Positions 5,201 through 64,000 are shown, counted from the stretch's first letter. The stretch: 64,000 nucleotides of DNA from Candidatus Pacearchaeota archaeon (GCA_041651235.1 JBAZJQ010000001.1:302449-366448), one strand, 5' to 3'. Made by a program: numbers and translations. The notes: generated by a model not told the origin, from the letters alone.

Positions 5201-5637
5201 ATGCAGGTTGCACTTGTAGCAATTATAAAATTCTTCCAACAATGCAAGAAAAAGTAGATAAACAAATGGGATTATGTGTTAAATTAAGAAGTGTCGATCA
5301 GGGGGATGTGGCTAGACTAATTATTGATAGACATTTTATGAGAGATTTGAAAGGTAATTTAAGAAAGTTTTCCCAACAGAATTTTAGATGCAGCAGATGC
5401 AACGAAAGTTATAGAAGGCCTCCCTTAAATGGAAAGTGTATTAAGTGTACTGGAAATATTATATTCACTATTTCTTATGGAAGTATTGTTAAATATTTAG
5501 GGCCTGCAATAATGCTGACTAAAAATTTTAATGTCCCTCCCTATATTATGCAGGATTTGGAATTAACTAAAAAATATATTGAAAGTATTTTTGGGAAAGA
5601 CAACGAGAAACAAGTAGGATTAGGGGAGTTTATGTAA
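2215..5637 (+). CDS. DNA polymerase D (PolD) large subunit DP2
   Basis: 1140 aa. Has the RRDCDGDEA catalytic-core motif, GSRMGRPEKAK, and several Cys4 zinc clusters (CDKCKRE..CECCG, CSVCNKE..C, CSRCNESYRRPPLNGKCIKC). No intein-sized insertion seen. Confidence 0.93.
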   Translation: MNTEEYFASLSEEIQKNYEVARQARARGLDPVDEVEVPLALTMAAKVVRLIATIYPQLDREDIINRILELEKQYGALDNTVSFKIAEEIAKETYCKFENPLQAIDAGIRVGFAYTTLGVVSSPIEGYTEIKIGKTQEGKSYLKPYFSGPIRSAGTTASCVVLILVDYLRQIFGYAKYDPTEEECKRVVTELYDYHERCNNLQYLPTTEEAYFIAKNMPIQVAGDPTEKKEVSNFKDLHRIDTNFIRGGLCLILGEGVAQKAAKGLRILRGMQKNGLVINDWEWLEEYLKVHEKREKGKSDTSPTYIKDLVAGRPVFGHPGRGFRFRYGRSRVAGFSAVSVHPATMAVTDDFIATGTQLKIEKPTKGCVVTPCDEVDGPIVKLKTGSVKKLRDYEEAKKLYKDIEEIIYLGDILFPLGDVQNRNSLLIKPGYVEEWWNLELEKAGEIINNYYEVKIEKAIEVSEKYKIPLHPSYIYYWTQVSYEQFLGFIDWLEHARIRDNKLIFPYNKTEKERFQKGKRALELLGVEHEVAIENVVLDESATRALLINLGKDLDSSLDFDYQFSEKTNVLEVINELSKFKIKDKAGEFIGSRMGRPEKAKLRKLIGSPNVLFPVGEEGGRLRSVNVASDVGGVKSSFPFYYCDKCKRETIYRTCECCGEKTKKKYFCSVCNKESDEKCNIHERAGSFKQTRIDMKHFFDNARDKLHLGKYEVPELIKGIRGTSSQNHDLENLTKGILRAKYNLQVNKDGTIRYDMTELPISHFKPKEIEVSLEKLKELGYDKDYLGEELTNEEQILELKPHDVILPCNALCGDEKADEVFINTAKFIDELLEKVYGLPRFYNIKKREDIVGQLGVCMAPHNCAGVICRFLGFSRVQGLFASAYMHAAIRRDCDGDEAALMLLLDVLINFSRKFLPAHRGGTQDAPLVLNGRISAREVDDQILDFELVSRYPLELYEKAEQKLHSNQIEIEMVKQRLKKGTDPYINTGFTHDSNDFNAGCTCSNYKILPTMQEKVDKQMGLCVKLRSVDQGDVARLIIDRHFMRDLKGNLRKFSQQNFRCSRCNESYRRPPLNGKCIKCTGNIIFTISYGSIVKYLGPAIMLTKNFNVPPYIMQDLELTKKYIESIFGKDNEKQVGLGEFM

Positions 5638-12462: not shown

Positions 12463-12487
12463 TTATTGTTTAATTGGTTTTGGAAAG

Positions 12488-12620
12488 ATGGTGCATAAAA
12501 AATATATACAAACTTTCTTTAGAAAAGACAAGTTTGAACAAAGAATAACTTTTTCGATAAAAGTTAAATCAAAATCAAATATATTTTTATAATATAAAAA
12601 TGGTGCATAAAAAATATATA
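12488..12620 (+). mobile_element. hairpin element copy A, flanked by a 21-bp duplication of the host start-codon region
   Basis: ATGGTGCATAAAAAATATATA at 12488-12508 and again at 12600-12620. The intervening 91 bp shares its first ~70 nt with copies at 41728, 49180 and 50713. Confidence 0.75.
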
Positions 12621-28800: not shown

Positions 28801-30543
28801 AAATTGTATCTTAATGGAAATTTAAATTCTCAAAAATTAGTTAGTGGAAAAATCTTAAATGATAATTCTGGATTAATTATTGGAAAGGGTTCTTTTAGTG
28901 ATTTGGCTACTGGACTTGTTGATGAGGTTATGATTTTTAAAAGAGCATTGGATGAAAATGAAGTTAAAGCCCTTTATGCAAATAAAACATTGGATAACTT
29001 AAAAACTAGTTTTACTAATTTATCTGCAGGAAATTATACGATGAAAGCATATTCTCAAGATAGTTATGGGAATATTAATTCAACTGAAGAAAGAAGTGTT
29101 AAAGTAACAGGACTTGTTGCTCCGGAAATTCTTTATATTACCCCGATGAGTGAAGTAGTTTATCCTGATGAAGATAATGGGGAGGGAGCTACTGCCACTA
29201 GAATTTTAGATAAGATTATTTTTGGGGTTACTGATGGAAATGGAGCTATTGATTTACCGAATAGCGGGATCATAGCTTCAGGATATATTGAACATACTCC
29301 TAATACTCCTTATGGTTATACTGATGTGGCTCATACCCGAAGATATTTTAATGGGGTGGACTGTGCTTTTAGAGGACTGATTGAAGAAGGAGGAAAAGAA
29401 TATTCTTGTGATGTGAATATTTATTATTATGATGATGCTGTTGACTGGAGTGTTAATATTACTAGTTTCAAAGATTTATCGGGATTAGAAGCTTCAAATC
29501 TTCCTTATTCTATGAATGGAGCTTTTAAAATTGGAGAGAGAAAGGGAGTTTATTTGTCAGAAAACATTTTAGATTTTGGGAATGTGAATAAATCTGTTCT
29601 TCCTGTTGAAGCATTAACCCCGATGATTATAAAAAATACTGGAAATAGGAATGTCGATGGAATTAGTAAATTACTCCAATTTAGAGGAAGAGATTTAACT
29701 GGAGAAACCTATACCGAACAAAAAATTTCTACTGAAAATTTCCAAGTTAATTTAGATAATCCCACTCCCTGTAGTCCTAGCAGTCAGTTTATAACTTTAA
29801 CTGATAAAATTGATAATCCTGCTGGAACTTTATTTAATGGTTTGATTTTACATAATGGGGATTTAGTTTTAGGAGATGCTCAAAATAATGTTTATTTTTG
29901 CTTAGCTAGTTTAATTGATACTCCTTTGAACAGTCAAACATATTCTACTATTCAAACAGGAGATACTTGGGAAATTAATGCAATTAGCTTATTTTTGATT
30001 AAGTTAATTAGATTTAATTTAGGAATAATTTTATTTGCAGTTGGAATAAGAATAAAGAGAAAAAAGAAGTTAGTTACAGAAGACAGATTATTAGATGTTC
30101 TAGAATCTAAACTAGAAGATAAATATGGGATTAATATTGAAGAATTGCTTTCTGAAATTAAAAAGAAAAAAGAAAAAGAAATCGAAGTTCCTTTGATAAT
30201 CTTTAGAAAAAGTATCGGGCCTGCTGAAATCTTATGTAAATACCTTAGAGAAAATAAAAAATTAAGGTTTAGTGAAATTGCTAAGCTAATTAATAGAGAT
30301 GAAAGAACTGTTTGGATTAATTACAGAAATGCTCAGAAGAAAATAAAAGGAAAGATAGAAATACAAAAAAGTTTAGTTATTCCAATATCTGTTTTGTCAA
30401 ATAAAAAATTGAGTATTTTAGAATCAATAATAAATTATCTAAAAGAAAAAGATTTGAAGAATTCTGAAATAGCAGAAATATTAAACAAAGACCAAAGAAA
30501 TATCTGGACATTGTATTCAAGAGTTAAGAAAAAAATAAAATAG
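22813..30543 (+). CDS. giant (2576 aa) LamG / beta-helix surface protein with cytoplasmic double-HTH tail
   Basis: N-terminal coiled coil plus TM. Four LamG_3-like modules (each ending DEVMxF.R.L...E...LY). PbH1-type beta-helix repeats (NITNSKINSTGNRYAIRANNNSNTYISDSIF...). C-terminal TM, then two LuxR/sigma-r4-like HTH motifs. Confidence 0.88.
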   Translation: MNEKIRKLEERKLKLLKNIDYTKKKKQEIIDFTQKLVGEYIKGRISRAQYESQLSKTLNNKTPEQWVRYYEEYIESYEKQIDICDKEIKKEKSRRINNKTVSVLLIGIVLVSLILFIFSSYFFGPAIINKFSGISQGTQTSLSQAQNEIQTPELLPEQAIPAEELALTGVFMNGQDISSSVKQFPAVAGMPVRWKAKVDLNENSALVLPNEAENIVVKENGKEVTNEISVDKKSFLGIFNKRTEVSVTDSDNYEINYETPAPQISAENFENRGAIKISGPDNLGYTNVLSYVEIPGQLKMSEINKLKFYWIKNGIRTEHKYVAYDLNEDGFVDTIEWITPHLSEQTFEWIIEISNAEHLDSNKEFISDIYEQVKEQDDIWSEQINNNEYVRVRFRQALDNTRDITIYARKTGSDESEKSTIEVYSENGNNLIARFENINQENWYKIYLNNLPGGESYDVFDLKIIGNVEFDYIVDPIVIPSYSEQLISEGNFYHLNISNSAPYNQLYLYHNFDVDGTNIPSWDNKGTPDSTFGAVYNSSGLYGGARTFNGNTYLSNLRTELQFSNPGQYTWMMWIKRSSLTNKEALFNFAFSRAWDAGGSITIGSVLEDDKLYFNNLYGGDYIRSSGTIEGGWTHVAVSYNNGAIALYINGNQDGSGTLNCMGSEGYDLNIGGDSFGALDYNANEGIYFKGEMDEVMVFRSALTSTQISDIYKNQSNRFIISGSQNFGNQSLLNISGSPISVLGDYKNISSYINLSVGYYTGQWYSTNTQVFNGDNLFDTHPLSTNLTLNFTFYSGSNNGNYNFYSPILFSDVDVSKGSVDTTPPAINFTYPTPANASKIYADNFVVNVSASDVGKGDNNISTFIDFNRSLVGWWRMDDVNGNIVYDNSNYGNDLSVRNGAYQTNGFLGNGFGFDGVDDVLVNNSKINGLAIGGGNATISVYAKINQDYDVFKGIFEYGRASGDSYGIWRNASDTFHCRFGYGGAANWQDTIDSVQMFYPNQWYHILCTMQDIGNGNFEYKIYINGKLDNTKVRIPNSWISLEKSLAIGAYGYGDGELFNGTIDEVMIFKRVLNENEIKTLYANYTAKNLSVSFNNLKIGNNYTFKAYSQDIKGNVNLTEKREVEISAPGDLIADCSGTDPYTNQDWIIKDNTLCENVNIKLSQDRILAMYEGGNLTLKNVSLTLDPSSDKFLIYVEDNSKINITNSKINSTGNRYAIRANNNSNTYISDSIFYDMGASNAQPYQGVINAYDNVYVLIKNNSFFNIGGIFKYSGALTGPTQRIFLYNNQVINYSSDCIRSYYGKGIVVENLSCYNGALYGSGIRLQYYNSNLTFKNINITNIIDDGIVILDGADNLSFENINLINVSDLRHQGYHGSGVNLYQNTGNITDILFKNIFSTVNDITSEDGIDEAVQIGNGGVGKILNVTFIGCNFSSVGSYPVGVNAKDSYINFINTSLNSDLGNKFSYESTSKNVTINVKWYYWGYAKDEIGFPVQGVNISAFNKSNNLQFSSLTNGNGLVNKELIDFIDFVNGSGSQNRSYYSNYTINASYLDYPNKTISHNMTYEHNVYDEFVFLIPDRHAPAINFTYPTPANNSIVYTDNFVVNVSASDIGRGDNNISTFIDFNRSLVGWWRMDDFCVVCGKNGRGDYLSYWKLDDSFSDGVANDEKGINNGKIYGATQIIDPQRGEVARFDASASNYINVGNNSNLEISNAISISGWIKLEGTAVTQRLVSKKVSSGAQTGFEVEIYTYSFDPRLRFYAQGNTYANAYYNWNSNPGWHHIVAVANGNEGRLYVDGVDRTTDSTIDPILSNNLNLTIGRQSGTGAAPFEGLMDDIRIYDFALTPGEVLEIYNSESNCDPGFCDYSDYGTNCLVVGGATQTSGKIGKALNFPLNSFLNCTNDLDFNITKEITLSLWVNAPSLPADNQEISILRNEESGYNLIIGNEEVDGIIAPIRFEIRNASSGTNQYQKIYSNSDISPNTWYNVIATYDGNLMKLYLNGNLNSQKLVSGKILNDNSGLIIGKGSFSDLATGLVDEVMIFKRALDENEVKALYANKTLDNLKTSFTNLSAGNYTMKAYSQDSYGNINSTEERSVKVTGLVAPEILYITPMSEVVYPDEDNGEGATATRILDKIIFGVTDGNGAIDLPNSGIIASGYIEHTPNTPYGYTDVAHTRRYFNGVDCAFRGLIEEGGKEYSCDVNIYYYDDAVDWSVNITSFKDLSGLEASNLPYSMNGAFKIGERKGVYLSENILDFGNVNKSVLPVEALTPMIIKNTGNRNVDGISKLLQFRGRDLTGETYTEQKISTENFQVNLDNPTPCSPSSQFITLTDKIDNPAGTLFNGLILHNGDLVLGDAQNNVYFCLASLIDTPLNSQTYSTIQTGDTWEINAISLFLIKLIRFNLGIILFAVGIRIKRKKKLVTEDRLLDVLESKLEDKYGINIEELLSEIKKKKEKEIEVPLIIFRKSIGPAEILCKYLRENKKLRFSEIAKLINRDERTVWINYRNAQKKIKGKIEIQKSLVIPISVLSNKKLSILESIINYLKEKDLKNSEIAEILNKDQRNIWTLYSRVKKKIK
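25283..25449 (+). repeat. intragenic direct repeat, copy 1 (167 bp)
   Basis: Matches 27557-27723 at a constant offset of 2274 bp, with about a dozen mismatches by eye. Encodes PPAINFTYPTPAN...NFVVNVSASD.G.GDNNISTFIDFNRSLVGWWRMDD. Confidence 0.85.
27557..27723 (+). repeat. intragenic direct repeat, copy 2 (167 bp)
   Basis: See copy 1. The last ~107 bp differ at only about 4 positions. Confidence 0.85.
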
Positions 30544-44222: not shown

Positions 44223-46508
44223 ATGTTATTCAAGCCAGGAACGCCGGTTTATGCTTATGAAATTGTTAAAGAAGAAGATGCTCAAGTTATGTATGTTAAT
44301 TATTTAGGGGCTCCCTTAGTGCCTAATCTAACTAATGCAGATATTATGTCCAGCACAGTTGATTTATTAATCCAATCCCCCAATGTTTCTAGGATTGTTT
44401 TTGTACAGCAAAGAAATTATTCTTATGGTTCTGAAGAGGTTTTTGTTTTAAAAGAAATCGCAAATCTTTATGTTTATCTTACTAAACAAGAAAATATTCT
44501 CTCCCCTATTAAATTATCTATAATGAATTCTGAATATCTTGGGCAGAGACATAATGATGTTAGTTATCTTTTAATGACTTTAAAGAGAGATCCTATTGCT
44601 TGTTATTATGAATTAAAGAGATTTTTAAAACAAGAAAAATTAAATTTACTTAATACTCCTGAAGAGCTTAAAGTTGATCAGCTAAGTTATATTCGGTTAT
44701 TAGAAAAGTTTTTTTCTTTATTAGGACAATCAAAATTAATAAAGCAAGCTGAAATTTATTTTTCAAATTATTCTTTTGGAGACAGAGAAATTTATAATCA
44801 TGTATTTAGGACAAATATAATTCCTAATTTTACTTTTACTAGATTGGTAAGTAATCTCCCTGAAAACGCAGAGATTGTACAGCAATATGAATTGGGATCT
44901 GATTCAAGTAAATCTCTTGTAACTATTTTGAAAAAAGAAGAAGAAACTAAATATATTTATCATCTAATGCCTCCAGAATATGCCTTAGAAGAAGATAAAC
45001 AGGAATTGCTTAATCTTGCAAGAAATGTTTTAATTGAACATCAACCAAAAGCAGAAGAGTTTACTGATCCTGAAAAAACACGGCAAGTATTTTTTAATGT
45101 AGCAAGAGATTTGTTAAGTGAGCTGTCAGTTAGCAGAAAAGTAAAATTAAGTTATGATGAATTAAATACTTTAGCTAAAATTTTAGTTAGACACACTATT
45201 GGATTTGGATTAGTAGAAATATTATTGCAAGATAAAAATATCCAGGATATTGTATTGAATGCACCTATTTCTTCTAATCCTGTCTTTTTAAGGCATCAGA
45301 ATTTTGATGAATGCATAACTAATATCCTTCCAAGTACTGAAGATGGAGACTCGTGGGCAGCAAAATTTAGAATGATTTCAGGAAGACCCCTCGATGAAGC
45401 GAATCCTATTTTAGATACTGATTTGGGTTTGGGAGATATAAGGGCGAGAGTTGCAGTTATTCAGCAACCACTTTCACCAAAAGGATTAGCTTATGCAATT
45501 AGAAGGCATAGGGAAGAGCCATGGACCCTGCCTCTCTTTATTAAATATAAAATGCTGAATAGTTTTGCAGCAGGCTTAATGAGTTTTTTAATTGATGGAA
45601 GCAGGACTATTTTAATTGCAGGAACAAGAAGTTCAGGTAAAACTTCTTTGTTAGGAAGTTTAATGCTGGAGATTATGCCGAAGTACAGAATAATTTGTAT
45701 CGAGGATACTTTGGAATTACCTGTAGAAGCATTGAGAAAATTACAGTATGATATTTTAAGGATGAAAGTTAGAAGCAGTTTATTAAAAACAACAACTGAA
45801 ATTGGAGCTGATGAAGGTATAAGAACTTCGTTAAGATTAGGAGACTCAAGCTTGATTGTTGGAGAAGTAAGAAGTTTGGAGGCTCAGGCACTTTATGAAG
45901 CAATGAGGGTTGGTGCTTTAGCAAATGTTGTTGCAGGAACAATTCACGGAGCTTCACCATATGCTGTGTTTGACAGAGTTGTTAATGATTTGAAAGTACC
46001 TGTTACTTCATTTAAAGCAACTGACTGCATTATTGTTGCTAATCCAGTTAAAACTCCTGATGGATTAAAATCAATGAAAAGAATTTTGCAGATAAGTGAA
46101 GTAAGAAAACATTGGACAGTAGATCCTGAACAAGAAGGGGGCTTTGTTGATTTATTGAAGTATAATGTTGAAAAAGATGAATTAGAAGCAAGCGAAGAAT
46201 TAATTAATGGGGATTCTGAAATAATAAAATCTATTGCTGGAAGTGTTAAAGGATGGGCTGGTGATTGGGATGCTGTTTATGATAATATTTTATTAAGAGG
46301 AAAAGTGAAGCAGGAAATTGTTGATGTTGCTGAAAAAACAAAGAAACCAGAATTATTAGAATCCCCATTCAATAGTTTGTCTAATAATATGTTTCACCAA
46401 TACTCTAAAGAAATTCAAGAAGAAGTTGGATTGCCTGTAAGTGATAGGGTTTTTCCTTTATGGCAGGATTGGTTAAAAAGACAGGTTCAGGGAAAAAAGA
46501 TATCATAA
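44223..46508 (+). CDS. type II/IV secretion family ATPase (FlaI/PilB/VirB11-like) with long N-terminal extension
   Basis: Walker A AGTRSSGKTS about 465 residues in, IICIEDTLEL, Walker B/Asp box LIVGEVRSLEA, His box AGTIHGAS. Confidence 0.88.
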   Translation: MLFKPGTPVYAYEIVKEEDAQVMYVNYLGAPLVPNLTNADIMSSTVDLLIQSPNVSRIVFVQQRNYSYGSEEVFVLKEIANLYVYLTKQENILSPIKLSIMNSEYLGQRHNDVSYLLMTLKRDPIACYYELKRFLKQEKLNLLNTPEELKVDQLSYIRLLEKFFSLLGQSKLIKQAEIYFSNYSFGDREIYNHVFRTNIIPNFTFTRLVSNLPENAEIVQQYELGSDSSKSLVTILKKEEETKYIYHLMPPEYALEEDKQELLNLARNVLIEHQPKAEEFTDPEKTRQVFFNVARDLLSELSVSRKVKLSYDELNTLAKILVRHTIGFGLVEILLQDKNIQDIVLNAPISSNPVFLRHQNFDECITNILPSTEDGDSWAAKFRMISGRPLDEANPILDTDLGLGDIRARVAVIQQPLSPKGLAYAIRRHREEPWTLPLFIKYKMLNSFAAGLMSFLIDGSRTILIAGTRSSGKTSLLGSLMLEIMPKYRIICIEDTLELPVEALRKLQYDILRMKVRSSLLKTTTEIGADEGIRTSLRLGDSSLIVGEVRSLEAQALYEAMRVGALANVVAGTIHGASPYAVFDRVVNDLKVPVTSFKATDCIIVANPVKTPDGLKSMKRILQISEVRKHWTVDPEQEGGFVDLLKYNVEKDELEASEELINGDSEIIKSIAGSVKGWAGDWDAVYDNILLRGKVKQEIVDVAEKTKKPELLESPFNSLSNNMFHQYSKEIQEEVGLPVSDRVFPLWQDWLKRQVQGKKIS

Positions 46509-46934: not shown

Positions 46935-49124
46935 ATGGAAAATAAAGAGGTTAAAGATATTCTTGAAAAGTATTCTAATCAATTAAAAGAGCAAGTAGAA
47001 AATTATGATAATTATAGTCCTTCTGGAGAACAGGTTAGCAGAGAATTCGAGCAATTTAAACAAGATATGATGCCAGAATTATCTAAATTTGAAAGGTGGG
47101 CTGCAAATATTGGAGGAATAATAAAACTTAAGATTGCTACAAAAGATGAAGAGAAAATCCAAAAAGAATTAGATAATGCCCACTTAAATGTTAGTCCCGG
47201 AGAAGTGGTTGGGTTAGCAATTGCTGGTTTTTTAGGATTCTTTTTTCTTGGAATCTTAATAAGTGTTGCTATATGGTTATTTAGTGGGGAAAGTTTGATT
47301 AATGGTTTTCCATTATTATTTTTATTTTTAATGCTAGTTGCTTCATTTTTTATTTTTTATTATTTTTATTCGCAGCCTTCAAGACTTGCAACTAAATGGA
47401 GATTAAAGGCAAGTAGCCAGATGGTTCCTGCAATTCTCTATACTGTAATTTATATGAAACACACAAGTAATTTAGAAAGAGCAATTAGTTTTGTTGCACA
47501 AAATGTCGAAGAACCTTTAAGTTTGGATTTAAGAAAAGTTATATGGGATGTTGAAACAGGGAGATATTCTACAATAAAAGAAAGTTTGGATTCATATCTT
47601 GATTCTTGGAGAGAGCATAGTATGGAATTTGTAGAGAGTTTTCATTTAATTGAATCAAGTTTATATGAGCCTAGTGAAGCAAGAAGAATTCAGATTTTGG
47701 AAAGAGCTTTGAAAGTTATTTTAGATGGAGTTTATGAGAAAATGTTGAAATATACTCATGAAATAAAATCTCCTTTAACTAATATTTATATGTTAGGAAT
47801 TGTTCTTCCAACTTTAGGATTAGCTTTACTGCCTTTAGCTTCTACTTTGTTAAGCGGAGCTATAACTTGGGTGCATGTATTTTTAATATTTAATTTAATA
47901 ATCCCTTTTTTAGTTTTTTATTTAACTAGTCAGATAATGCTGCAAAGGCCAGGAGGTTATGGGGAAACTAGCTTGTTAGAAAGAAATCCTCTTTATTATG
48001 AATATAGTTCCAAGAGTGTTTATTTTACTGCATTTGCAATTTGTTTGCCTTTCTTTTTATTGGGAATACTTCCATTAATTTTTGGATATACTCCTGTTCC
48101 TGCATGGTTAGGCTTACCTAGTGATTTTAATACAAGCACCTTTGCTTTCGGAATTTTTGGAGATAAGGCTTTTGGATTTTTATTAAATGATGCAGGAGAT
48201 ACTGTTGGTCCTTTTGGATTAATTGGATTATTGCTGAGTTTATTAGTTCCATTTTCAGTTGCAATGTTTTTTTCTCTAAGTTTTTCATTTAGAACTAGAA
48301 ATTTAATTAAAGCAAGAAATGATTCAAAGGATTTAGAAAAAGAATTTAACAGCAGTTTGTTTACCTTGGGAAATAGATTGGGTGATGGAACTCCTGCTGA
48401 AATTGCATTTGCAAGAGTTGCTGAGTCAGTTAAAGGACAGAAAACAGAGGATTTCTTTAGAATTGTTAACTCAAATATTCAATCAATGGGTATGAGCATA
48501 GAAAATGCTATTTTTAATCCTACCAGAGGGGCTTTGATTTATTATCCTTCAACCTTAATTGCAACAAGCATGAGAATTTTAGTTGAATCTGTTAAAAAGG
48601 GTTTGAGAGTTGCTGCTGAAAGTTTAATGAGTATTTCTGAATATGTAAGAAATATACAGAAAATAAATGAAAGATTAAGAGATTTACTTGCTGATGTGGT
48701 TTCTGATATGAAGAGTAATATGACTTTTTTAGCTCCTTTGCTAGCGGGAATTGTAGTAGGTTTGTCTGCAATGATTACTGGAATTTTAGGAATGTTAGAA
48801 GGGTTAATGGGAGAGGGAGGGGCTGGAACCTCGATTGCAGGTATAGGGGATATAGGGAGTATAACTACTTTGTTCAATATAAAGACAATGATTCCTCCTT
48901 ATTTTTTGCAAATTGCAATTGGAATTTATCTTGTACAGATTGTATTTATTTTAACAGCAACACTAACTACTGTTGATTCTGGTGAAGATAAATTAAAACA
49001 AACTTACGATATTTCTAAGAATTTAATTAGAGGCACAATTTTATATTTGGTTACAGGATTTATTTCAATTATTGCTCTAAGTGTTTTAGCTTGGTTTGCA
49101 TTAAAAGGATTAGGTGCAGGTTAA
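46935..49124 (+). CDS. polytopic membrane platform protein (FlaJ/TadC/PilC-like)
   Basis: Two soluble helical domains, each followed by TM clusters, matching the two-repeat T2SS-F architecture. Sits immediately downstream of the ATPase. Confidence 0.65.
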   Translation: MENKEVKDILEKYSNQLKEQVENYDNYSPSGEQVSREFEQFKQDMMPELSKFERWAANIGGIIKLKIATKDEEKIQKELDNAHLNVSPGEVVGLAIAGFLGFFFLGILISVAIWLFSGESLINGFPLLFLFLMLVASFFIFYYFYSQPSRLATKWRLKASSQMVPAILYTVIYMKHTSNLERAISFVAQNVEEPLSLDLRKVIWDVETGRYSTIKESLDSYLDSWREHSMEFVESFHLIESSLYEPSEARRIQILERALKVILDGVYEKMLKYTHEIKSPLTNIYMLGIVLPTLGLALLPLASTLLSGAITWVHVFLIFNLIIPFLVFYLTSQIMLQRPGGYGETSLLERNPLYYEYSSKSVYFTAFAICLPFFLLGILPLIFGYTPVPAWLGLPSDFNTSTFAFGIFGDKAFGFLLNDAGDTVGPFGLIGLLLSLLVPFSVAMFFSLSFSFRTRNLIKARNDSKDLEKEFNSSLFTLGNRLGDGTPAEIAFARVAESVKGQKTEDFFRIVNSNIQSMGMSIENAIFNPTRGALIYYPSTLIATSMRILVESVKKGLRVAAESLMSISEYVRNIQKINERLRDLLADVVSDMKSNMTFLAPLLAGIVVGLSAMITGILGMLEGLMGEGGAGTSIAGIGDIGSITTLFNIKTMIPPYFLQIAIGIYLVQIVFILTATLTTVDSGEDKLKQTYDISKNLIRGTILYLVTGFISIIALSVLAWFALKGLGAG

Positions 49125-49162
49125 ATTTATTAAGTCTTTTTTTGTTTTATTAATGCTATAAG

Positions 49163-49597
49163 ATGAGAAATAAAAGAGGTAAACTTTCTTTAGGAAAGAC
49201 AAGTTTAAACAAAGAAAAACTAAATATGAAAAAGGTAAACCAAAATCTGTTTTTATCTGAAGATAAAAAAGGTTTTGAAATGGCTATTAGTACTCTAATC
49301 TTAATGATTATAGGAGTAGTTTTGCTTATCTCTCTAATAACTTTTTTTACAATGGGAAGTGCAGAATTTATTAAAACAATAAAAAGTTATGTCAGTTATT
49401 CAAATGTAGATAATGCTGTTGAATCTTGTAACATTTTAGTTGATACTAATCAGCAAAATACTTATTGCTGTGAGAAAAGAATCGTTAAATATTATGAAGA
49501 GGGAGATAAAAAAGAAGAAAGTTTTAGTTGTTATGATTTAATCCCCTTAAAATTGAGTGATAATTTAAAAGAAATGAGTTGTAATGTTGAGTGCTAA
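49163..49597 (+). CDS. type IV pilin-like protein whose signal-peptide region carries hairpin element copy C
   Basis: ...EDKKG-FEMAISTLILMIIGVVLLISLITFF class III pattern. The element is read through in frame. Alternative start ATG at 49226. Confidence 0.7.
   Translation: MRNKRGKLSLGKTSLNKEKLNMKKVNQNLFLSEDKKGFEMAISTLILMIIGVVLLISLITFFTMGSAEFIKTIKSYVSYSNVDNAVESCNILVDTNQQNTYCCEKRIVKYYEEGDKKEESFSCYDLIPLKLSDNLKEMSCNVEC
49180..49256 (+). mobile_element. hairpin element copy C (inside coding frame)
   Basis: TAAACTTTCTTTAGGAAAGACAAGTTTAAACAAAGAA...AAAGGTAAACCAAAATCTGTTTTTAT. Flanked by an imperfect 13-nt repeat, AAATAAAAGAGGT (49168-49180) and AGATAAAAAAGGT (49261-49273). Confidence 0.7.
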
Positions 49598-49772: not shown

Positions 49773-50681
49773 ATGAATAAAAAAGCAGATACAGGGCTTA
49801 CTATGAATAAATTAATTACTTTATTTATAATTGCAATAGTAATTATTGTAGTTGCTATAGGTTCAATAAAATATGGGAAAGATATTTTTGATAAGATTAA
49901 AACCATTTTTCCGGGTTTTAATCAGACTGCGGGGAATAATGAGTTAATTCAACCTGCAACTATTCTAAATATTAAAACGAATGTTTTATTAAATGATGGA
50001 GAGGGAAGATGCATTGTTTATGAAGAGAAAAATCCTTTAATTAAGGATTATGGGATAAGAGAAAATAAATTATGGAGATTTGAAAATGGGAAGTGGATAG
50101 ATATAGACACAACGGCTAATTTAGATGATAATCAAATGACGAAATGCGAAGCTGTTCAAAAGTTAATTGCTGATGAAAAAGAATTAATGCAAGAGATTAA
50201 AGATTATTATTATCAGTTTTATAATGATGTTTGTATTCCTACTTTTAATGATCCAAGCAACTATATTGATTCTGAGATGAATGTTAAATGTGGATTTTTA
50301 AAAGAGCTTTTTGAAGAAAATTTCTTTAGTAGCGCAAGTTTTAAAGATATCGAAAGTATAGATGATGATAACCTTAAAAGTGAAATATATTTTTTAGTTC
50401 AATTGATTATAAAACAAGATGAGAGCTTAAAAAATGAAATTAGTTTTAGTGGAAAATTAAATATTTTAATGCTTCCTGCGGGTAACTTAAATCAGATATT
50501 GTCGAGTACATTAGATGGGAATTATGCAACAAATGGAAAAGAAATTTATACATTATCTGGGGTAAAGTGGATTGAAATTGAACAAGAGGATCACCCCTAT
50601 CTATTTATTGAAGGATGCTCAAAAACAAATAAACAGATCAAAGCAGATTTATTCAATGCATGTTATGTTGATGAGAAATAA
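49773..50681 (+). CDS. type IV pilin-like protein (302 aa)
   Basis: MNKKADTG-LTMNKLITLFIIAIVIIVVAIG class III pattern. Confidence 0.7.
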   Translation: MNKKADTGLTMNKLITLFIIAIVIIVVAIGSIKYGKDIFDKIKTIFPGFNQTAGNNELIQPATILNIKTNVLLNDGEGRCIVYEEKNPLIKDYGIRENKLWRFENGKWIDIDTTANLDDNQMTKCEAVQKLIADEKELMQEIKDYYYQFYNDVCIPTFNDPSNYIDSEMNVKCGFLKELFEENFFSSASFKDIESIDDDNLKSEIYFLVQLIIKQDESLKNEISFSGKLNILMLPAGNLNQILSSTLDGNYATNGKEIYTLSGVKWIEIEQEDHPYLFIEGCSKTNKQIKADLFNACYVDEK

Positions 50682-50823
50682 AATATAAAATGAAAAGATT
50701 AAATAAAAAAGACAAACTTTTTTTAGTAAAGACAAGTTTGAACAAAGAATACCTTTTTAGAAAAAAGGTAAACCAAAATCTTTTTTTATTTAAAATATAA
50801 AATGAAAAGATTAAATAAAAAAG
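50679..50823 (+). mobile_element. hairpin element copy D, flanked by a 33-bp duplication of the host start region
   Basis: TAAAATATAAAATGAAAAGATTAAATAAAAAAG at 50679-50711 and 50791-50823. The intervening 79 bp is the element, with both hairpins intact. Confidence 0.8.
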
Positions 50824-54810: not shown

Positions 54811-55794
54811 ATGAAAAAAATATTATTGTTCTTCGCTGGCTTCTTTTTATTAGGAATTCTTCTATTTTGTTTGAGTTTGGTTTCTGCAGAAGATGAGTTA
54901 AACCAAAAGATCGTTTTTGAGTATTATGAGGGAATGAACGATATTTTTAAGTTTAAATGGAATTCAATAAATAATTACCTTGAAGTAAATTCGGATGTAC
55001 GAAGCGGACCTTGGAGATATGCTTTACCTTATACTCATTATCCCACTGTAGATAGCATCTTTATTAATCTCGTTGGATTATATGCTTATGAACGCGAAGA
55101 TATTGTTAAAATGCTGGGGGCAACTAGTTTCAAAGAAGCAATTGAACTTGCTAATTTAATTGCAAAAGAAAGAGGGATAGAGAAACTTTTTGTGTCTATG
55201 GAAGATTTAGACAGCTCAGATATTCGAGATACCCTTTCAATTGGTTTTGATTTTGAAGAGGATAACCCAGAAGATCTAGAAAATAGGTATAATGAAGATA
55301 CTTTTTTTGAGTTTGATAAAACAGAATTAAACCAAAAGATCGTTTTTGAGTATTATGAGGGAATGAACGATATTTTTAAGTTTAAATGGAATTCAATAAA
55401 TAATCATTTAGAAGTTAATGGAAATGTTAATACTTGGTATCAATCTGCTAGTAGCAAGAGAAGAGAAACAGAAAAGAGTTACGATTTTGATTATACTTCC
55501 AACCCCCTGGGCGATAGTAATTTTGCAAATTTGGTGGGCATCTATCCAGAAGAACAAGACGATGTCTTAACCATGCTTCAAGCAAACAGCTTCAAAGAAG
55601 CAATTGAACTTTCTAATATTATCCAAGTTCAAAGAGGACAAGAAAAATTATCTATTGGAATAGTGGAAACAGAAGATAATCCTAATGAGTTCACATTTGA
55701 TGAAGAAGTTTCCACTACGACTAATGATCAATTTGCATTTAATGAAAAAATTGATGAAACCGAATCAAATCAATTTGATTTCGGAGTAGCATAA
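54811..55794 (+). CDS. secreted two-repeat protein (Sec-type signal)
   Basis: Signal LLFCLSLVSAEDE. Two homologous halves, each starting ELNQKIVFEYYEGMNDIFKFKWNSINN.LEVN and containing SFKEAIEL. Confidence 0.7.
   Translation: MKKILLFFAGFFLLGILLFCLSLVSAEDELNQKIVFEYYEGMNDIFKFKWNSINNYLEVNSDVRSGPWRYALPYTHYPTVDSIFINLVGLYAYEREDIVKMLGATSFKEAIELANLIAKERGIEKLFVSMEDLDSSDIRDTLSIGFDFEEDNPEDLENRYNEDTFFEFDKTELNQKIVFEYYEGMNDIFKFKWNSINNHLEVNGNVNTWYQSASSKRRETEKSYDFDYTSNPLGDSNFANLVGIYPEEQDDVLTMLQANSFKEAIELSNIIQVQRGQEKLSIGIVETEDNPNEFTFDEEVSTTTNDQFAFNEKIDETESNQFDFGVA
54898..54975 (+). repeat. 78-bp perfect intragenic direct repeat, copy 1
   Basis: Identical to 55327-55404 (offset 429 bp = 143 codons). Confidence 0.9.
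55327..55404 (+). repeat. 78-bp perfect intragenic direct repeat, copy 2
   Basis: Identical to 54898-54975. Confidence 0.9.
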
Positions 55795-56412: not shown

Positions 56413-57261
56413 ATGATTAGTGAAATTTTTGCTGGTGAGAATGGATTTCTTATAATTTTAGGATTAATCTGGATTATCGGAGCGATTTTACAGGACTTTA
56501 AAAGAAGAGAGGTAGATAATTTATGGAATTTTAGCTTGATATTTATGGCACTTGCTTATAGGGCCTTTGTTAGTATCTCTAATGGGAATTACTGGTTTAT
56601 TATAAATGGTATAATTGGGTTCGGAGTATTTTTTGCATTAAGTAATTTATTTTATTATTCAAGATTATTTGCAGGAGGAGATGCAAAATTATTAATGGCT
56701 TTAGGAGCAATTCTTCCTCTCTCTTACAACTGGATTTCAAATTTAAAAATATTTGTTGCATTTGTCTTATTATTTTTTGCGTTAGGTGCTTTGTATTCTT
56801 TAGTTTATAGTTTTGTTTTAGTTTTTGCAAATTTTAAGAGATTTACTAAAGAGTTTAAGGTTCAATGGAAAAATTATAATAAAATGTTTTTATGGGCAAT
56901 TGGTTTTATGATCCTCTGGATTATTTTTGCTTTTATTCTAGATCAAAAGCCAATTATGATAATTGGATTTGTTGTTTTGTTGTTCCCTGTTTTATTTGTT
57001 TATGCAAAATCAGTTGAAGAAAGCTGCATGGTTAAATTAGTTGATCCTAAAGAAGTAACTATCGGAGATTGGCTGTATAAAGATATTAAAGTTGGAGATA
57101 AGAAAATAAAGAGCAAATGGGAAGGAGTTTCAAAATATAATCTAGAAATAATAAGAAAAGGAAAGAAAAAGATTTTAATCAAGCAAGGAGTTCCTTTTAC
57201 TCCTAGTTTCTTATTTGGTTTTATTGTATTAATTGTTTTAATTTACAAGGGATATTTGTGA
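56413..57261 (+). CDS. A24-family prepilin/preflagellin peptidase (FlaK/PibD/EppA-like)
   Basis: First Asp block ILQDFKRREVDN, second FAGGDAKLLMALGA (GxGD-type). Polytopic. Confidence 0.82.
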   Translation: MISEIFAGENGFLIILGLIWIIGAILQDFKRREVDNLWNFSLIFMALAYRAFVSISNGNYWFIINGIIGFGVFFALSNLFYYSRLFAGGDAKLLMALGAILPLSYNWISNLKIFVAFVLLFFALGALYSLVYSFVLVFANFKRFTKEFKVQWKNYNKMFLWAIGFMILWIIFAFILDQKPIMIIGFVVLLFPVLFVYAKSVEESCMVKLVDPKEVTIGDWLYKDIKVGDKKIKSKWEGVSKYNLEIIRKGKKKILIKQGVPFTPSFLFGFIVLIVLIYKGYL

Positions 57262-60548: not shown

Positions 60549-61532
60549 ATGGCTAAAAAAGAAAAAGAAGAAAATAAGGAAATGAAGCTTTCTGATTTGC
60601 CTGGGGTTGGACCTGCTGCTATTGAGAAATTAGAAGCTGCAGGTATTTTTGATTTAATGGGAATTGCTGTTTTAGGGCCTAAAGAATTATCTGAAATGGC
60701 AGGAATGGGAGAAGCTGCTGCAAGAAAGGCAATTCAAGCATCAAGAAAAATGATGGATTTAGGATTTCAGTCAGGATTAGAATTTGCAACTAAAAGAGAG
60801 GAAATTAATCATATCACAACTGGAAGTCAGAATTTTAATAATTTGTTAGGGGGAAAAGGAGTTGAAACCAAATCAATTACAGAGGCTTTTGGAGCTTATG
60901 GTAGTGGAAAAACTCAGTTGGGTTTGAGTTTAGCTGTAAATGTCCAATTGCCTTTGGAAATGGGGGGATGTGAGGGAAAAGCAGTTTACATTGACACAGA
61001 GGGGACATTTAGACCTGAGAGAATAAAGCAGATTGCAGAAGCAAAAGGAGCAAATCCTGAAAAAGTTTTGCAGAATATTTTAGTTGCAAGAGCATTTAAT
61101 TCTGATCATCAGATTTTGCTTATAGATAAAATTGGTGAGTTAATTAAAAATGGAGAACCAATAAAAATAGTTATTGTGGATAGTTTAACTGCTCATTTTA
61201 GAGCAGAATTTTCAGGAAGAGGACAGCTAGCAGATAGGCAGCAGAAATTAAATAAATATCTGCATAATTTAATGAAAATGGCAGAGCAGTTTAATTTAGC
61301 TGTTTATGTTACTAATCAGGTTATGGCAAATCCTGCAATGATGTTTGGAGATCCTACAACTGCAATTGGTGGAAACATTGTGGGACATGCTTCAACTTAT
61401 AGATTATATTTAAGAAGAAGCAAGAAAAATTCAAGAGTTGCAAAATTAATTGACAGCCCTAATTTGCCTGATAATGAGTGTATTTTTTATGTTGGAAAAA
61501 AAGGAGTTAGTGATGATGAAGATGCTGAATGA
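60549..61532 (+). CDS. radA: DNA repair and recombination protein RadA
   Basis: N-terminal HhH (LPGVGPAAIEKLEAAGI), Walker A GAYGSGKTQ, VYIDTEGTFRPERI, Walker B IVIVDSL. Confidence 0.93.
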   Translation: MAKKEKEENKEMKLSDLPGVGPAAIEKLEAAGIFDLMGIAVLGPKELSEMAGMGEAAARKAIQASRKMMDLGFQSGLEFATKREEINHITTGSQNFNNLLGGKGVETKSITEAFGAYGSGKTQLGLSLAVNVQLPLEMGGCEGKAVYIDTEGTFRPERIKQIAEAKGANPEKVLQNILVARAFNSDHQILLIDKIGELIKNGEPIKIVIVDSLTAHFRAEFSGRGQLADRQQKLNKYLHNLMKMAEQFNLAVYVTNQVMANPAMMFGDPTTAIGGNIVGHASTYRLYLRRSKKNSRVAKLIDSPNLPDNECIFYVGKKGVSDDEDAE

Positions 61533-61572
61533 TTTTCGTAATCTTTATTAAGTTAAGTTATTTTTAGTTATT

Positions 61573-61953
61573 ATGAAAAAAGAGAGTGGAATAATATTCG
61601 TTTTAATAGGAGTAATAATTTTAGTAGGCATTTTTGCAGTTTTTAATTATATAAAAATGAATTCTGAAATTGATGGTTTAAAAAAAACTAATTCTGATTT
61701 ACTTACAGAAAGAGGGCAATTGAAAGATGAAATAGAAAGTTATAAAGCAAAAATTGCAAAAACAGATGCAGAACTAGCAAAACTGCAGGAAGATGTAGCT
61801 AAAATTTACAAAACTTGCATTACTAATAATGCATGCAAAGGACATTATCCGGGGATAAGCTGGAATTGCAATAATGTAGGTGATGAAGTAAGTGATCCTT
61901 CACATACTTGCGTATGTGATTCTGCCTGTAATTTAAAAGCTACTGCGATTTAA
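61573..61953 (+). CDS. membrane-anchored coiled-coil protein with Cys-rich C-terminus
   Basis: N-terminal TM, heptads (LKDEIESYKAKIAKTDAELAKLQEDVAKI), 8 Cys in the last 50 aa. Confidence 0.55.
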   Translation: MKKESGIIFVLIGVIILVGIFAVFNYIKMNSEIDGLKKTNSDLLTERGQLKDEIESYKAKIAKTDAELAKLQEDVAKIYKTCITNNACKGHYPGISWNCNNVGDEVSDPSHTCVCDSACNLKATAI

Positions 61954-61999
61954 TCCTAAGGATTAACTCCCTGACGTTTTCCTCGCGATATAGAAATTA

Positions 62000-62725
62000 T
62001 TACAGTTCTATTTCGTCAAAATTAACTAGAATTCTCTTCTCAAAATCATAGTGAGAAGCATAATATGGATTAACCTTATTGTTACAGTTTTGGATTTGCG
62101 GAAGAATTATTTTCTTCCATTGGTACAAATCTGCTTTTAGAAATGCCCCGGGATATATTATCAACCTAAACTTATCGCTTTTAACAAGAGTTTTAGGAAA
62201 CTCAATTAATCCCTGCCTTATAAGATGAGTAACCACAATCTCTTCTATAATAAAATTGATATTTGCTTCTGTTTGAGGTCTTCCATTGAGCCCTTCAATT
62301 AGTAATCCTTTAAAGGTTTTATCTTTTTCTTTTAAATCTACTAATTTTTGATAGTATTCTTGATAATTTGGTGCATTTAAGATAATGTAATCCCAAGGAA
62401 TAAAATGGGCTGCTTGAGGAATATACTTCTTGCTTTTAATTAATAATTTTAGAATTTTATTCTTATGCTCAATCATTTGTATGTTTGTCTTTTTTCTAAC
62501 ACTCAATGCTGGCTCATCATTATTATAATAGAGCCCATTGGTATAAAGGAATATAAAATCTATTCCAACTTGACTTACTTTTTTTTCAAACTCTTTTACT
62601 ATTTCAAAGCACTCTTCTGGACTTTGACCCTTTCCATTAGAAAGTCTGCTCATTGACAAAGGTAGAACCATGTATCCATCAGTAGGTAGTTTGTTTATAT
62701 CATAAAGTTTGTTTTTGATTACCAT
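62000..62725 (-). CDS. hypothetical protein (241 aa)
   Basis: Long clean ORF; no motif I can name with confidence. Confidence 0.55.
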   Translation of the reverse strand: MVIKNKLYDINKLPTDGYMVLPLSMSRLSNGKGQSPEECFEIVKEFEKKVSQVGIDFIFLYTNGLYYNNDEPALSVRKKTNIQMIEHKNKILKLLIKSKKYIPQAAHFIPWDYIILNAPNYQEYYQKLVDLKEKDKTFKGLLIEGLNGRPQTEANINFIIEEIVVTHLIRQGLIEFPKTLVKSDKFRLIIYPGAFLKADLYQWKKIILPQIQNCNNKVNPYYASHYDFEKRILVNFDEIEL

Positions 62726-62796
62726 TAAATAGTATAAGAGGATGGTATTTTAAAACTTATCTCAAATAGAAATCCTAAGGAGAAAAAGGCAACTCT

Positions 62797-63030
62797 TTAG
62801 GAGAGGCTATTTGGGCTCAGAGCTATTTTCTTCTTCCCAGCTTTAGAATATTTCCACTTTTGAATTTTCAAATATAGTAACTTTGCTTCTTTCTCATTTA
62901 AGTCATATGTTGATTGTAAGTCCTCAGTATCATATTCACTTCTATCTTCCAATAAATCATTTTTCTTAAAAGAACTAAATAATCTGTTTACCTCTTTTCT
63001 CCTGACAGTTTGCCTTTTAACTTTTATCAT
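62797..63030 (-). CDS. hypothetical small basic protein
   Basis: 77-aa ORF in the same direction as 62000..62725. Confidence 0.4.
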   Translation of the reverse strand: MIKVKRQTVRRKEVNRLFSSFKKNDLLEDRSEYDTEDLQSTYDLNEKEAKLLYLKIQKWKYSKAGKKKIALSPNSLS

Positions 63031-63225
63031 AAAATAATAAAAAGAAGCTCGTTTTTATAGGTTGTTCCGACGAGAAAATTATAATTATTAATAATAATTA
63101 TACTTTAGATTTTTCTTCTTTCCTAACTAGTTAAACGCCCCCACGAATCGTATCATACTTTTTATGATATTTTTTGTTACAGAATATGTGACAAGATTTA
63201 TAACACCGAAAAGAGTTATCTTATA

Positions 63226-63981
63226 ATGTCTGACAAATCACTTCCAGTCTTTATGCAGGAAGAATCTACTAATAAGATATTAACAGAAGCTATCACTTGC
63301 ATTCCCAAAAATACTAAAATTTATCTCATAGGGGGAGCCCTAAGGACTGCAATTTATTATAAACATTTTAATAAAAAAATGCCTATGAGAGATTATGATT
63401 TATTCTTAACAGGTAGCCCTAAAGAATTTATATCAAACTTAAGAAAAAAAGGTTTTATTTACGGAAAACTAAAAAGGAAGGATGAAAGAGTTGTAAAGAA
63501 AAAGAGATTTTCTGGAGCAAAGGAATTAGAAGACTTTGTTTTTTTAGATATTCATTTTTCTAGTGATAAGGATATTAAAAGTAACTTAAAAAAAAATGCT
63601 AATTTTACCATAAATGGATTTGCTTTGCCTCTAAAAGAAATTTTATCTTCCGAATGGCAAAAAAAGATTATCTCTGTAAAAAATGCAGAAAAAGATTTAA
63701 AAGAAAAACAAATTAGAATAAATGCATTTATTCATCCAGCCCAATTGTATGCATGTGTCAGATTTGTTTCTCATGGATATAAACCTCCAACTAAAGATGA
63801 ATTAGATGGTTTGTTATTACTTCTAAAGAAACTTCGTAAAAACCAATTAGAAAGAAATCTCAAAAAAGTTTTTACACAAACAGGTGGAGAAAAAAAGGCT
63901 AGAGATATTGTGAAAAAAATGGGAATAAAAGAAGATATCTTTTCTTTTGAAACAATAAAGAATCTCCGTAAAAATAAATAG
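63226..63981 (+). CDS. nucleotidyltransferase with class II (poly(A) polymerase / CCA-adding head)-like motif
   Basis: IYLIGGALRTAIY...MRDYDLFLTG resembles the GGxVRD...DxD head-domain signature. The rest is not recognised. Confidence 0.45.
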   Translation: MSDKSLPVFMQEESTNKILTEAITCIPKNTKIYLIGGALRTAIYYKHFNKKMPMRDYDLFLTGSPKEFISNLRKKGFIYGKLKRKDERVVKKKRFSGAKELEDFVFLDIHFSSDKDIKSNLKKNANFTINGFALPLKEILSSEWQKKIISVKNAEKDLKEKQIRINAFIHPAQLYACVRFVSHGYKPPTKDELDGLLLLLKKLRKNQLERNLKKVFTQTGGEKKARDIVKKMGIKEDIFSFETIKNLRKNK

Positions 63982-64000
63982 TTCACCTCCTCCCCACTAA

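Follow-up and report, generated by a model that had tools for sequence, protein, structure and literature searches.

Short hairpin repeats that lie in frame inside genes, where the peptide they encode is tolerated, include the Rickettsia palindromic elements (RPEs), QMITE1 of Coxiella, and intragenic ERIC sequences (PMC10969869; PMC5896051). RPEs occupy many positions in unrelated genes. The MITEs of archaea (the Sulfolobus SM elements, those of Halobacterium, and others) are small, non-autonomous, and multicopy, and their presence varies between related genomes; MITEs have terminal inverted repeats and a fixed short target-site duplication set by a parent transposase. None of the archaeal MITE hosts listed in PMC10969869 is a DPANN archaeon. 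REP/BIME and Correia-type repeats are conserved imperfect palindromes found between the genes of operons, in short intergenic stretches. Most follow a gene or occur in both orientations; they have no long flank duplications, are linked to RAYT or IS transposases, and can affect mRNA stability, processing, or termination. In eukaryotes, SINE-type retroposons and template-switched chimeric retrocopies are small structured RNA-like units with variable-length flank duplications, microhomology at the 5′ junction, occasional 5′-altered copies, an A-rich tail followed by a T run, and a duplication edge that coincides with the 5′ end of a transcript. We know of no SINE-type retroposon in archaea or bacteria.

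The DNA analyzed here (the window) is a stretch of 64,000 nt from Candidatus Pacearchaeota archaeon (GCA_041651235.1, JBAZJQ010000001.1:302449-366448), in which the leader of a type IV pilin-like gene contains a copy of a repeat designated E. We consider it likely, with a probability of roughly 0.78, that a now decayed E copy was inserted in this leader, that the start was kept and the insertion tolerated, and that the family spreads at gene starts. Judged by analogy, E comes nearest to palindromic repeats that lie in frame within genes, RPEs and other intragenic MITEs among them, which like E are short, hairpin-forming, multicopy, and non-coding, and occur in frame inside coding genes; the 93-nt pilin insert, with its open frame, and four more in-frame pilin cases are of this kind. 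E is set apart from RPEs by a host from a different domain of life and by an apparent lack of sequence similarity to them; moreover, it is found nowhere but in the first bases of a transcription unit, always in the orientation of that unit, lacks terminal inverted repeats, and has flank duplications of 9–33 bp anchored at the gene start. It shares with archaeal MITEs its small size, non-autonomy, copy number, and variable presence between related genomes, but is not a MITE by definition, since terminal inverted repeats are lacking and its duplications are not of fixed length (9–33 bp, and none in some copies). No parent element with a transposase was found, and the 30 window proteins scanned include no transposase, integrase, or reverse transcriptase, nor any other candidate mobilizing enzyme for E. 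The resemblance to SINEs is one of junction anatomy only, in variable-length duplications, 5′-junction microhomology, occasional 5′-altered copies, an A-rich tail with a T run after it, and a duplication edge predicted to match the 5′ terminus of a transcript. No E copy is called as tRNA-like by ARAGORN, ARAGORN and Rfam give no sign of derivation from tRNA, 7SL, or 5S RNA, and no reverse transcriptase was identified among the scanned window proteins. Unlike REP/BIME and Correia-type repeats, E always precedes a gene. E is thus a small non-autonomous repeat outside the MITE, REP, and SINE definitions, and the family is apparently undescribed, literature searches having found no published account of an E-like element in DPANN archaea.

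The consensus of E, about 67–68 nt, comprises a hairpin HP1 (CAAACTTTCTTTAnnAAAGACAAGTTTG; 12 bp, as 7 bp, a bulged C, and 5 bp), a linker (AACAAAGAATA, also given as AACAAAGAAUA), a 7-bp hairpin HP2 (ACCTTTTyyGAnAAAAGGT), and a tail (AAAYCAAAAKC). Its two ends (CAAACTTTC on the 5′ side, AAACCAAAATC on the 3′ side) lack complementarity, and the inverted repeats are those of the internal hairpins. In a structure alignment of E copies, 98.3% of cells pair. One HP2 pair is AU in eight copies and CG in seven; HP2 occurs as ACC/GGT with the tail AAACC and as AAC/GTT with the tail AAATC or AAGTC, and since these are essentially two haplotypes the covariation counts as about one event. Both hairpin loops accept nested mini-hairpins with the stems unbroken. 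The 7+5 bp layout of HP1 is only suggestive of tRNA-likeness. No Rfam 15 family matches E in the window at the gathering threshold, and searches at permissive thresholds (E-value up to 10; contigs L002, L004, and L014) gave no relevant match.

By its gene content, the neighborhood of the pilin-like gene is an archaeal type IV pilus locus. It encodes a T2SSE-type ATPase (44223–46508, + strand; Pfam PF00437), a 729-aa FlaJ-like polytopic membrane protein (46935–49124, +; 72%–73% conserved in the syntenic contigs L007 and L016), an A24 prepilin peptidase homolog expected to cut the leader (56413–57261, +; Pfam PF01478, E-value 1.7e-9), and a run of small genes starting M..KKG or M..KKA. Genes for PolD and RadA, also present in the window, bear out that the organism is archaeal. 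The arrangement is that of archaeal class III signal peptide systems with PibD/FlaK-type A24 peptidases, in which a K-K-G motif is followed by the cleavage site and a hydrophobic helix of ~22 residues, and the A24 peptidase and T2SSE ATPase are encoded nearby (here PF01478 at 56413 and PF00437 at 44223).

The pilin-like ORF (49163–49597, +; 144 aa) is called a hypothetical protein by NCBI, on a 647,740-bp contig of a Candidatus Pacearchaeota MAG, and reads MRNKRG KLSLGKTSLNKEKLNMKKVNQNLFLSEDKKG FEMAISTLIL (from FEMA on also FEMAISTLILMIIG). Its probable native promoter is a TATA-like box (ATTTATTAA, 49126–49134, +) that is conserved in the related contig L025, 5′ of the first gene after the FlaJ-like gene. 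The left copy of the pilin start (49163–49180, +; ATG AGA AAT AAA AGA GGT, encoding MRNKRG) includes the original start codon and aligns to ATGAATAAAAAGGGA of an ortholog. E begins 18 nt after this ATG, in the orientation of the gene, and spans 49180–49247 (67 bits, E-value 5.8e-10 with the covariance model R1). Alignment and pairing analysis place HP1 (TAAACTTTCTTTAGGAAAGACAAGTTTA; 7 bp, bulged C, 5 bp) at 49180–49207 (+); 49208–49247 (+; alignment, cmsearch) holds the linker AACAAAGAA, then an HP2 that is degenerate, with CTAAATATG in place of its 5′ arm, and last the tail AAACCAAAATC. The overall plan and the conserved core AAAGACAAGTTTGAACAAAGAA are thus kept, with HP1 intact and the HP2 5′ arm gone. 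HP1 differs from the consensus at two positions only, and the change is compensatory because both are partners of one pair, the closing pair (C-G to T-A). An in-frame ATG (49226–49228, +), a possible alternative start unique to the pilin copy, has arisen at the site of the missing HP2 5′ arm, where the other copies have ACCTTTT or AACTTTT. The tail is followed by a T-rich spacer (TGTTTTTATC, 49248–49257, +), T-rich runs after the tail being seen in several copies, and then by a right, degenerate copy of the pilin start (TGAAGATAAAAAAGGT, 49258–49273, +), which encodes ..EDKKG (compare KDKKG, AAAGATAAAAAAGGA, in the paralog at 54293) and ends at the codon of the −1 glycine; its ATG is now CTG, as is also the case in copy L016a. 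The mature pilin-like protein (FEMAISTLILMIIGVVLLISLITFF..., 49274–49597, +), with a cysteine-rich C-terminal part before the stop codon, has 489 homologs in an exhaustive HMMER search, and the cleavage motif KKG/FEMAISTLILMIIGVVLLISLITFF (the slash marking the cleavage site), directly followed by the hydrophobic helix, is the same in the homologs.

Counted to the glycine of KKG, the leader has 37 residues from the ATG at 49163 or 16 from that at 49226 (a first-pass annotation of this DNA had given 39 or 18), in place of the short basic leader of archaeal type IV pilins; the median leader of the homologs is about 7 residues long, and the surplus here comes from the repeat. That the stretch is an ancestral extended signal peptide, its likeness to other copies being that of a shared protein motif, is scarcely credible. 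A few homologs do have leaders of 23–42 residues, and the stretch is basic like signal-peptide N-regions, but leaders of at least 23 residues occur in only eight of the best 150 homologs (by alignment offsets), the 25 homologs inspected start MNKRG/, MNKKG/, MAKSKKG/, and similar, and the E-encoded peptide KTSLNKE is in none of the 25. The short homolog leaders and the lack of this peptide in those inspected indicate, on sequence comparison, that the stretch is an insertion. The same 67 nt are moreover non-coding elsewhere, read in another frame at the copy at 12509 (W12509), and located upstream of an RNA gene in contig L021, and their conservation is at the nucleotide level and follows base-pairing. 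Finally, a syntenic ortholog lacks E: in L007 the FlaJ-like gene is 72% identical, the pilin is 44% identical, the same small gene lies downstream, and 49181–49273 aligns as a single 93-nt gap opposite ATGAATAAAAAGGGA/TTTGAGATGGCT (MNKKG/FEMAIN). Deletion of these 93 nt in silico joins ATGAGAAATAAAAGAGGT to TTTGAAATGGCT and gives MRNKRG/FEMAIS, collinear with L007, in agreement with the first-pass claim that removal of about 93 bp restores a prepilin start. The claim that the insert is an element copy is likewise upheld, by the empty site in L007 and by membership in a family with three other copies in the window; relatives sharing the long leader peptide, named there as the observation that would speak for a genuine extended signal peptide, were sought and not found among the homologs inspected, E being conserved as nucleotides, in non-coding contexts and in different frames. 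Exact-protein look-ups for E-free alleles returned the pilin from the same sample only, and nothing for the product of the gene at 50802.

All four E copies in the window (12509, 41728, 49180, and 50713) are on the same strand, and neither nhmmer nor the covariance model detected others there. W12509 stands at the start of a gene for a 1700-aa surface protein (12484–12620, +; 92.7 bits) and consists of a left duplicate (12484–12508), E (12509–12576), a spacer (12577–12595), and a right duplicate (12596–12620), with the perfect 21-mer ATGGTGCATAAAAAATATATA occurring twice. W50713, before a pilin-like gene at 50802 (50679–50823, +; 90.1 bits), has a left duplicate at 50679–50711, E at 50713–50780, a spacer at 50781–50790, and a right duplicate at 50791–50823; its perfect 33-bp duplication contains the ATG and seven codons of the 50802 gene. 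The fourth copy (W41728; 41728–41775, +; 44.8 bits), with HP1 intact and HP2 decayed, lies 22 nt 5′ of a membrane-protein gene at 41798, whose ortholog in the Diapherotrites contig L014 also has E upstream.

Across the family, at least nine E copies are flanked by a direct duplication, 9–33 bp long, of the 5′ end of the downstream gene: W50713 (33 bp, perfect), W12509 (21–25 bp), L004 (26–31 bp, one mismatch), L011 (about 29 bp, diverged), L016a (about 23 bp, diverged), L021 (13 bp, of the 5′ end of an RNase P RNA gene), L019 (12 bp, AAAATGAATAAA twice), L023b (12 bp), and L023a (9 bp). Six of them (W12509, W50713, L004, L011, L016a, and L021) beat 200 of 200 flank shuffles. The earlier expectation that insertions which restore a start survive is therefore borne out family-wide. 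At the pilin copy the flanks, TGAGAAATAAAAGAGG and TGA-AGATAAAAAAGG, match over 13–16 nt with mismatches, not above chance when taken alone. The 13-mers singled out in the first-pass annotation (AAATAAAAGAGGT at 49168 and AGATAAAAAAGGT at 49261) are at the positions given and differ at two sites as claimed, but such a match is by itself near chance, the window containing 23 matches at two or fewer mismatches versus 11.9 expected; the 13-mers are not the best local alignment, and both are lysine-codon strings typical of class III leaders. What lends the pilin flank repeat credibility is solely the example of other copies, whose flanks are unambiguously duplicated (perfectly, over 33 and 21 bp, in the window).

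Relative to the ATG, the left edges of the duplications lie at −4, −11, −3, −3, −4, −3, −2, and −4, and relative to the first helix of RNase P RNA at −4; they cluster 2–4 nt upstream of the ATG, with W50713 as the outlier, and the right edge is variable (+6 to +28). E insertion is duplicative and recurrent at gene 5′ ends, in the sense orientation, with flank duplications whose left edge is anchored and whose right edge varies. DPANN organisms have tiny, tightly packed genomes and mostly leaderless transcripts. TATA-like hexamers peak at −29 to −27 from the ATG (63 genes of the window genome and L025), which implies leaderless transcripts that start at or a few bases from the ATG; at W50713, the left edge of the duplication is preceded, at a distance of about 30 nt, by the TATA-like string ATTTATT. 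Taken with the left-edge positions, the predicted leaderless starts imply that the duplication spans approximately the transcription start to a variable point. Staggered DNA cuts followed by selection can explain the duplications, but not the tight clustering of left edges, to which a process tied to the transcription start is a better fit. E was also considered as a promoter donor, and set aside: in W12509 and W50713, its trailing T/A run and the restored ATG are not separated by the canonical TATA spacing.

Two of the three frames of E are free of stops, so about one in three insertions would read through and an in-frame position alone is not strong evidence. In the pilin leaders, however, in-frame fusion is found in five of six insertions (W49163, L016a, L016b, L023a, and L023b/P0004) against the one-third expected (p about 0.02, a rough binomial estimate). 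At non-pilin copies the frame of the left ATG crosses E and stops at or beside the restored ATG, with a TAA 7 nt before it (W12509), as TAAAATG (W50713 and L004), or as an ATGA overlap (L011 and L005); a rough binomial estimate of p for this coupling of the upstream frame to the restored ATG is about 0.005.

These frames bear on whether E in the pilin gene is translated. It may instead sit in an untranslated mRNA leader, the start being the ATG at 49226 or, on a leaderless transcript, that at 49281, and the extension of the ORF accidental, which we judge rather unlikely. Most other E copies are upstream of a start codon and not inside an ORF, the ATG at 49226 exists only in the pilin copy, where HP2 was destroyed, two E frames are open anyway, and a T-rich box (TTTTTATC) lies at −31 to −24 from the ATG at 49281, the usual TATA distance. 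Set against this are the conserved TATA-like box upstream of 49163, the excess of in-frame pilin insertions, and the loss of the ATG from the right start copy, which is neutral only if translation begins upstream. A start at 49281 would drop the cleavage motif conserved in the 489 homologs and is considered unlikely for that reason; the ATG at 49226 is plausible as a start codon and is fully compatible with a tolerated insertion. The first-pass description of an ORF that reads through the insert, with an internal ATG at 49226 and the cleavage motif kept, agrees with the sequence.

It is improbable that the insertion inactivated the gene and that a pseudogene is now decaying. The pilin copy is the most diverged full-length E in the window (67 bits versus 90–93 for W12509 and W50713), the second start codon is lost, and the close relative L025 has no pilin gene at all; the 144-codon frame is nevertheless intact, with the cleavage motif, the hydrophobic helix, and the conserved cysteines preserved relative to homologs, and in-frame E insertions recur in the pilin leaders of other genomes. 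A hairpin-rich stretch just past the start might lower expression, so the gene could be impaired, which would count against tolerance.

For a tolerated insertion the following course is envisaged. An E copy would have landed 18 nt after the start codon and duplicated the first bases of the gene (ATGAGAAATAAAAGAGGT, later ..TGAAGATAAAAAAGGT), the right copy then losing its ATG. Since 93 nt is a multiple of three and contains no stop, translation from 49163 or 49226 reaches the intact KKG/FEMA and the helix. E encodes a lysine-rich stretch that would suit a class III signal peptide, whose N-region is positively charged; the whole leader is predicted to be cut off by the A24 peptidase (56413), leaving the mature pilin unchanged, and this removal may be what makes E tolerable in frame in pilin leaders. 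The insertion would explain the odd 37-residue leader and offers a natural test of the leader length that an archaeal prepilin peptidase accepts. In the family as a whole, E may spread by being copied in through a process linked to the region where transcription starts, the survivors being insertions that keep a usable start, whether through duplication with translational coupling or through fusion in a cleavable leader.

E was found by pattern scans in six JGI metagenome contigs and in GTDB genomes labeled Nanoarchaeia, Diapherotrites, Pacearchaeota, and Nanoarchaeota, as well as in a "Dojkabacteria" bin and an unclassified "bacterium" bin. A strict pattern gave zero matches in the GTDB genomes, and a looser core pattern was used instead; three of its hits (L010, L012, and L020) look like chance matches and were dropped. 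The "Dojkabacteria" bin appears mislabeled, given that its contig L016 holds an archaeal pilus locus syntenic with the window. Searching with the E-encoded peptide, which harvested in-frame copies from only two proteins, added two loci, for a total of about 29 copies (Pacearchaeota, Nanoarchaeia, Diapherotrites, and other DPANN contigs); a scan of viral contigs gave no match. E is common to several archaeal orders at more than 90% identity. It has the orientation of the next gene in all 26 copies first analyzed and in three more seen later, and that gene starts 2–70 nt past the E core or has E within its first codons. The genes 3′ of E encode pilin-like proteins (six cases), the 1700-aa surface protein, a small membrane protein (window and Diapherotrites), proteasome alpha, and IscS-like, aminoacyl-tRNA-synthetase-like, RpoK-like, and L24e-like proteins, and in L021 the RNase P RNA (RF00373, E-value 4e-18). 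E is present in orthologous genes of distant lineages in two pairs (W41728/L014 and L016b/L023a), so some positions are old or repeatedly hit.

This distribution raises the possibility, which we hold somewhat doubtful, that E is a conserved DPANN cis-regulatory module of highly expressed genes, a folded 5′ RNA or a factor-bound DNA hairpin, present for regulation and not by selfish insertion. Every copy is co-oriented at the 5′ end of the next gene, genes such as those for proteasome alpha and RNase P RNA are among those preceded, stem changes are compensatory with loop expansions tolerated, and the same gene carries E in Pacearchaeota and Diapherotrites; orthologous copies are also more conserved than their flanks, those in the syntenic L016 and L023 being identical at 64 of 67 positions compared with 50%–78% in flanking coding DNA. 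On the other hand, flanks duplicated perfectly over 21 and 33 bp show that duplicative insertion occurred very recently, and presence varies between related loci, with copies at genes A and C in L023 only, a decayed E-like stretch in L016, and none in the 20.7 kb of the close relative L025; no function is common to the downstream genes, and no Rfam family matches E. A regulatory role and insertion are not exclusive, since E could be a mobile module that hosts retain. Many copies have a near-perfect E with no detectable flank duplication, a combination more in keeping with a conserved regulatory module than with a selfish insertion that is decaying.

Whichever role it has, E is a repeat family conserved across DPANN with copies only at gene starts, where, through its duplications, protein genes keep a start codon and the RNase P RNA its first helix. 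By placing a folded leader where transcription begins, such an element could serve quite generally to rewire expression, and it could mislead automatic start-codon annotation, as the 144-aa NCBI call suggests. We think it unlikely that E is a mobile element of a type new to prokaryotes, with integration anchored at the sites of transcription start. Speculative routes for such integration would be retroposition-like, with a polymerase copying a nascent transcript to its 5′ end and switching template to an abundant E RNA, or would depend on a nuclease cutting the open promoter bubble. The polymerase route would leave the anatomy observed, with a flank duplicated from about the first transcribed base to a point 6–28 nt downstream, E in sense orientation, and microhomology or a few extra bases at the 5′ junction. 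Either route might turn a leaderless gene into one that has a structured leader together with an upstream frame coupled to it. If the anchoring were RNA-mediated, no retroposon-like short element would have been described in archaea before E.

The 5′ junctions of E show microhomology (AATAAAA, GGCAAAC) or 0–4 extra bases. AATAAAA is directly 5′ of E in L002, L003, L019, L023a, and L023b, with similar strings at W49168 and W50701, and could reflect a target preference or junction microhomology. The heptamer matches the Asn-Lys-Lys codons of class III leaders, which may explain the frequent pilin-gene insertions; cleavable pilin leaders, rich in AAT-AAA-AAA codons, would be a natural safe harbor for E. 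A short inverted copy of the flank after E was rejected as a general feature, most instances being low-complexity A/T runs that did not beat shuffles; it is solid only in L016a (13/13) and L011 (11/11).

TATA-like hexamers form a sharp peak 27-29 nt 5′ of ATG codons (63 genes in the window and in L025, a contig of a close relative); at this spacing, most genes of the Candidatus Pacearchaeota of the window appear from sequence to give leaderless mRNAs. The pilus locus has few Shine-Dalgarno-like sequences. The T-rich run TGTTTTTATC (49248-49257), located 3′ of the copy of E (the two-hairpin repeat) in the pilin gene, spans positions -31 to -24 relative to the ATG at 49281 and so matches the canonical TATA distance of the genome. 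Any leaderless transcript started from this run would yield a pilin without its leader (MAISTLIL...).

Several pilin homologs (P0005, P0091, P0094, and P0053; L007:808-880, from a syntenic pilin locus lacking E) have a doubled start motif with no recognizable E. The doubled forms are MKKG-MNKRG; MNKN..21 aa..MNKRG; HKDKKG-RCRFLP-KDKKG; and ATGAAGAATACA ATGAAAAATAAA..30 nt..ATGAATAAAAAG. Elements since lost may have left these doublings behind, or other repeats may have been inserted.

Two copies of E that lie in different gene contexts (L001, about 5369-5415, and L006, about 944-990, both on the minus strand) share a further 45-48 nt 5′ of E, AAATAACATTTAAAAACATATAT....TTAGTATATAGAAAAAAAGAC, with an ATATAT box ~30 nt upstream of the first base of E. 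It is possible that the shared stretch and E together constitute a longer form of the element that carries its own promoter.

E also occurs beside RNA genes. An archaeal RNase P RNA gene (L021:634-1096) is flanked by copies of E on both sides; its true closing helix is GTGAGTGGGG/CTCCACTCAC, and its score of 66 bits (E value 4e-18) is under the Rfam gathering threshold of 84 because of large expansions. At L018:969-1108, upstream of a HisRS-like gene, E starts at position 1042, exactly where a tRNA-His gene called by ARAGORN reaches its 3′ end; E is therefore able to adjoin RNA genes on either side. A second hairpin repeat, smaller than E (~25-30 nt; for example, CCAGAAAATC-loop-GATTTTCTGG), was found at L021:643-760 and 1100-1150, within the second hairpin of E in L001 and L003, at L017:1240-1300 (minus strand), and at L023:1-50. 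It sits in the loops of E hairpins and in the gene for RNase P RNA, leaves the stems of its hosts intact, and looks like a mini-element that invades the loops of structured RNAs.

The window (60594-64000) and L025 (7369-10775), which belongs to another assembly (ENA ERZ27247363), share a 3.4-kb block at 94.5% identity, whereas the neighboring DNA is ~82% identical or unalignable and the gene content of the pilus locus differs between the two genomes. This configuration suggests that related Pacearchaeota have recently recombined or transferred DNA among themselves and that the pilin locus is variable. Four contigs (L013, L015, L016, and L017) come from the GTDB record "Candidatus Dojkabacteria bacterium AB_1215_Bin_135"; all four contain E, and L016 has an archaeal pilus locus syntenic with that of the window (FlaJ-like protein, 73% identical). 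Probably, either the record is a DPANN archaeon wrongly labelled as a CPR bacterium or the bin is mixed.

Other repeats were identified. Within the gene at 54811, for a 327-aa secreted protein, at least 96 nt are duplicated (54895-54990 and 55324-55419; 94% identity, 429 nt spacing), which indicates two recently arisen tandem domains. Two giant genes of 1700 aa (12600-17702) and 2576 aa (22813-30543) probably encode surface proteins; within the latter, stretches of 114-181 nt recur with 75-90% identity (25272/27546 and 25989/28908). In L022 (1290-1500), a ~120-nt sequence, TTCTAGATAAATCTT..G..CA..GC..CACTTTACACAC.., a repeated and possibly structured element, stands in two tandem copies just 5′ of a copy of E.
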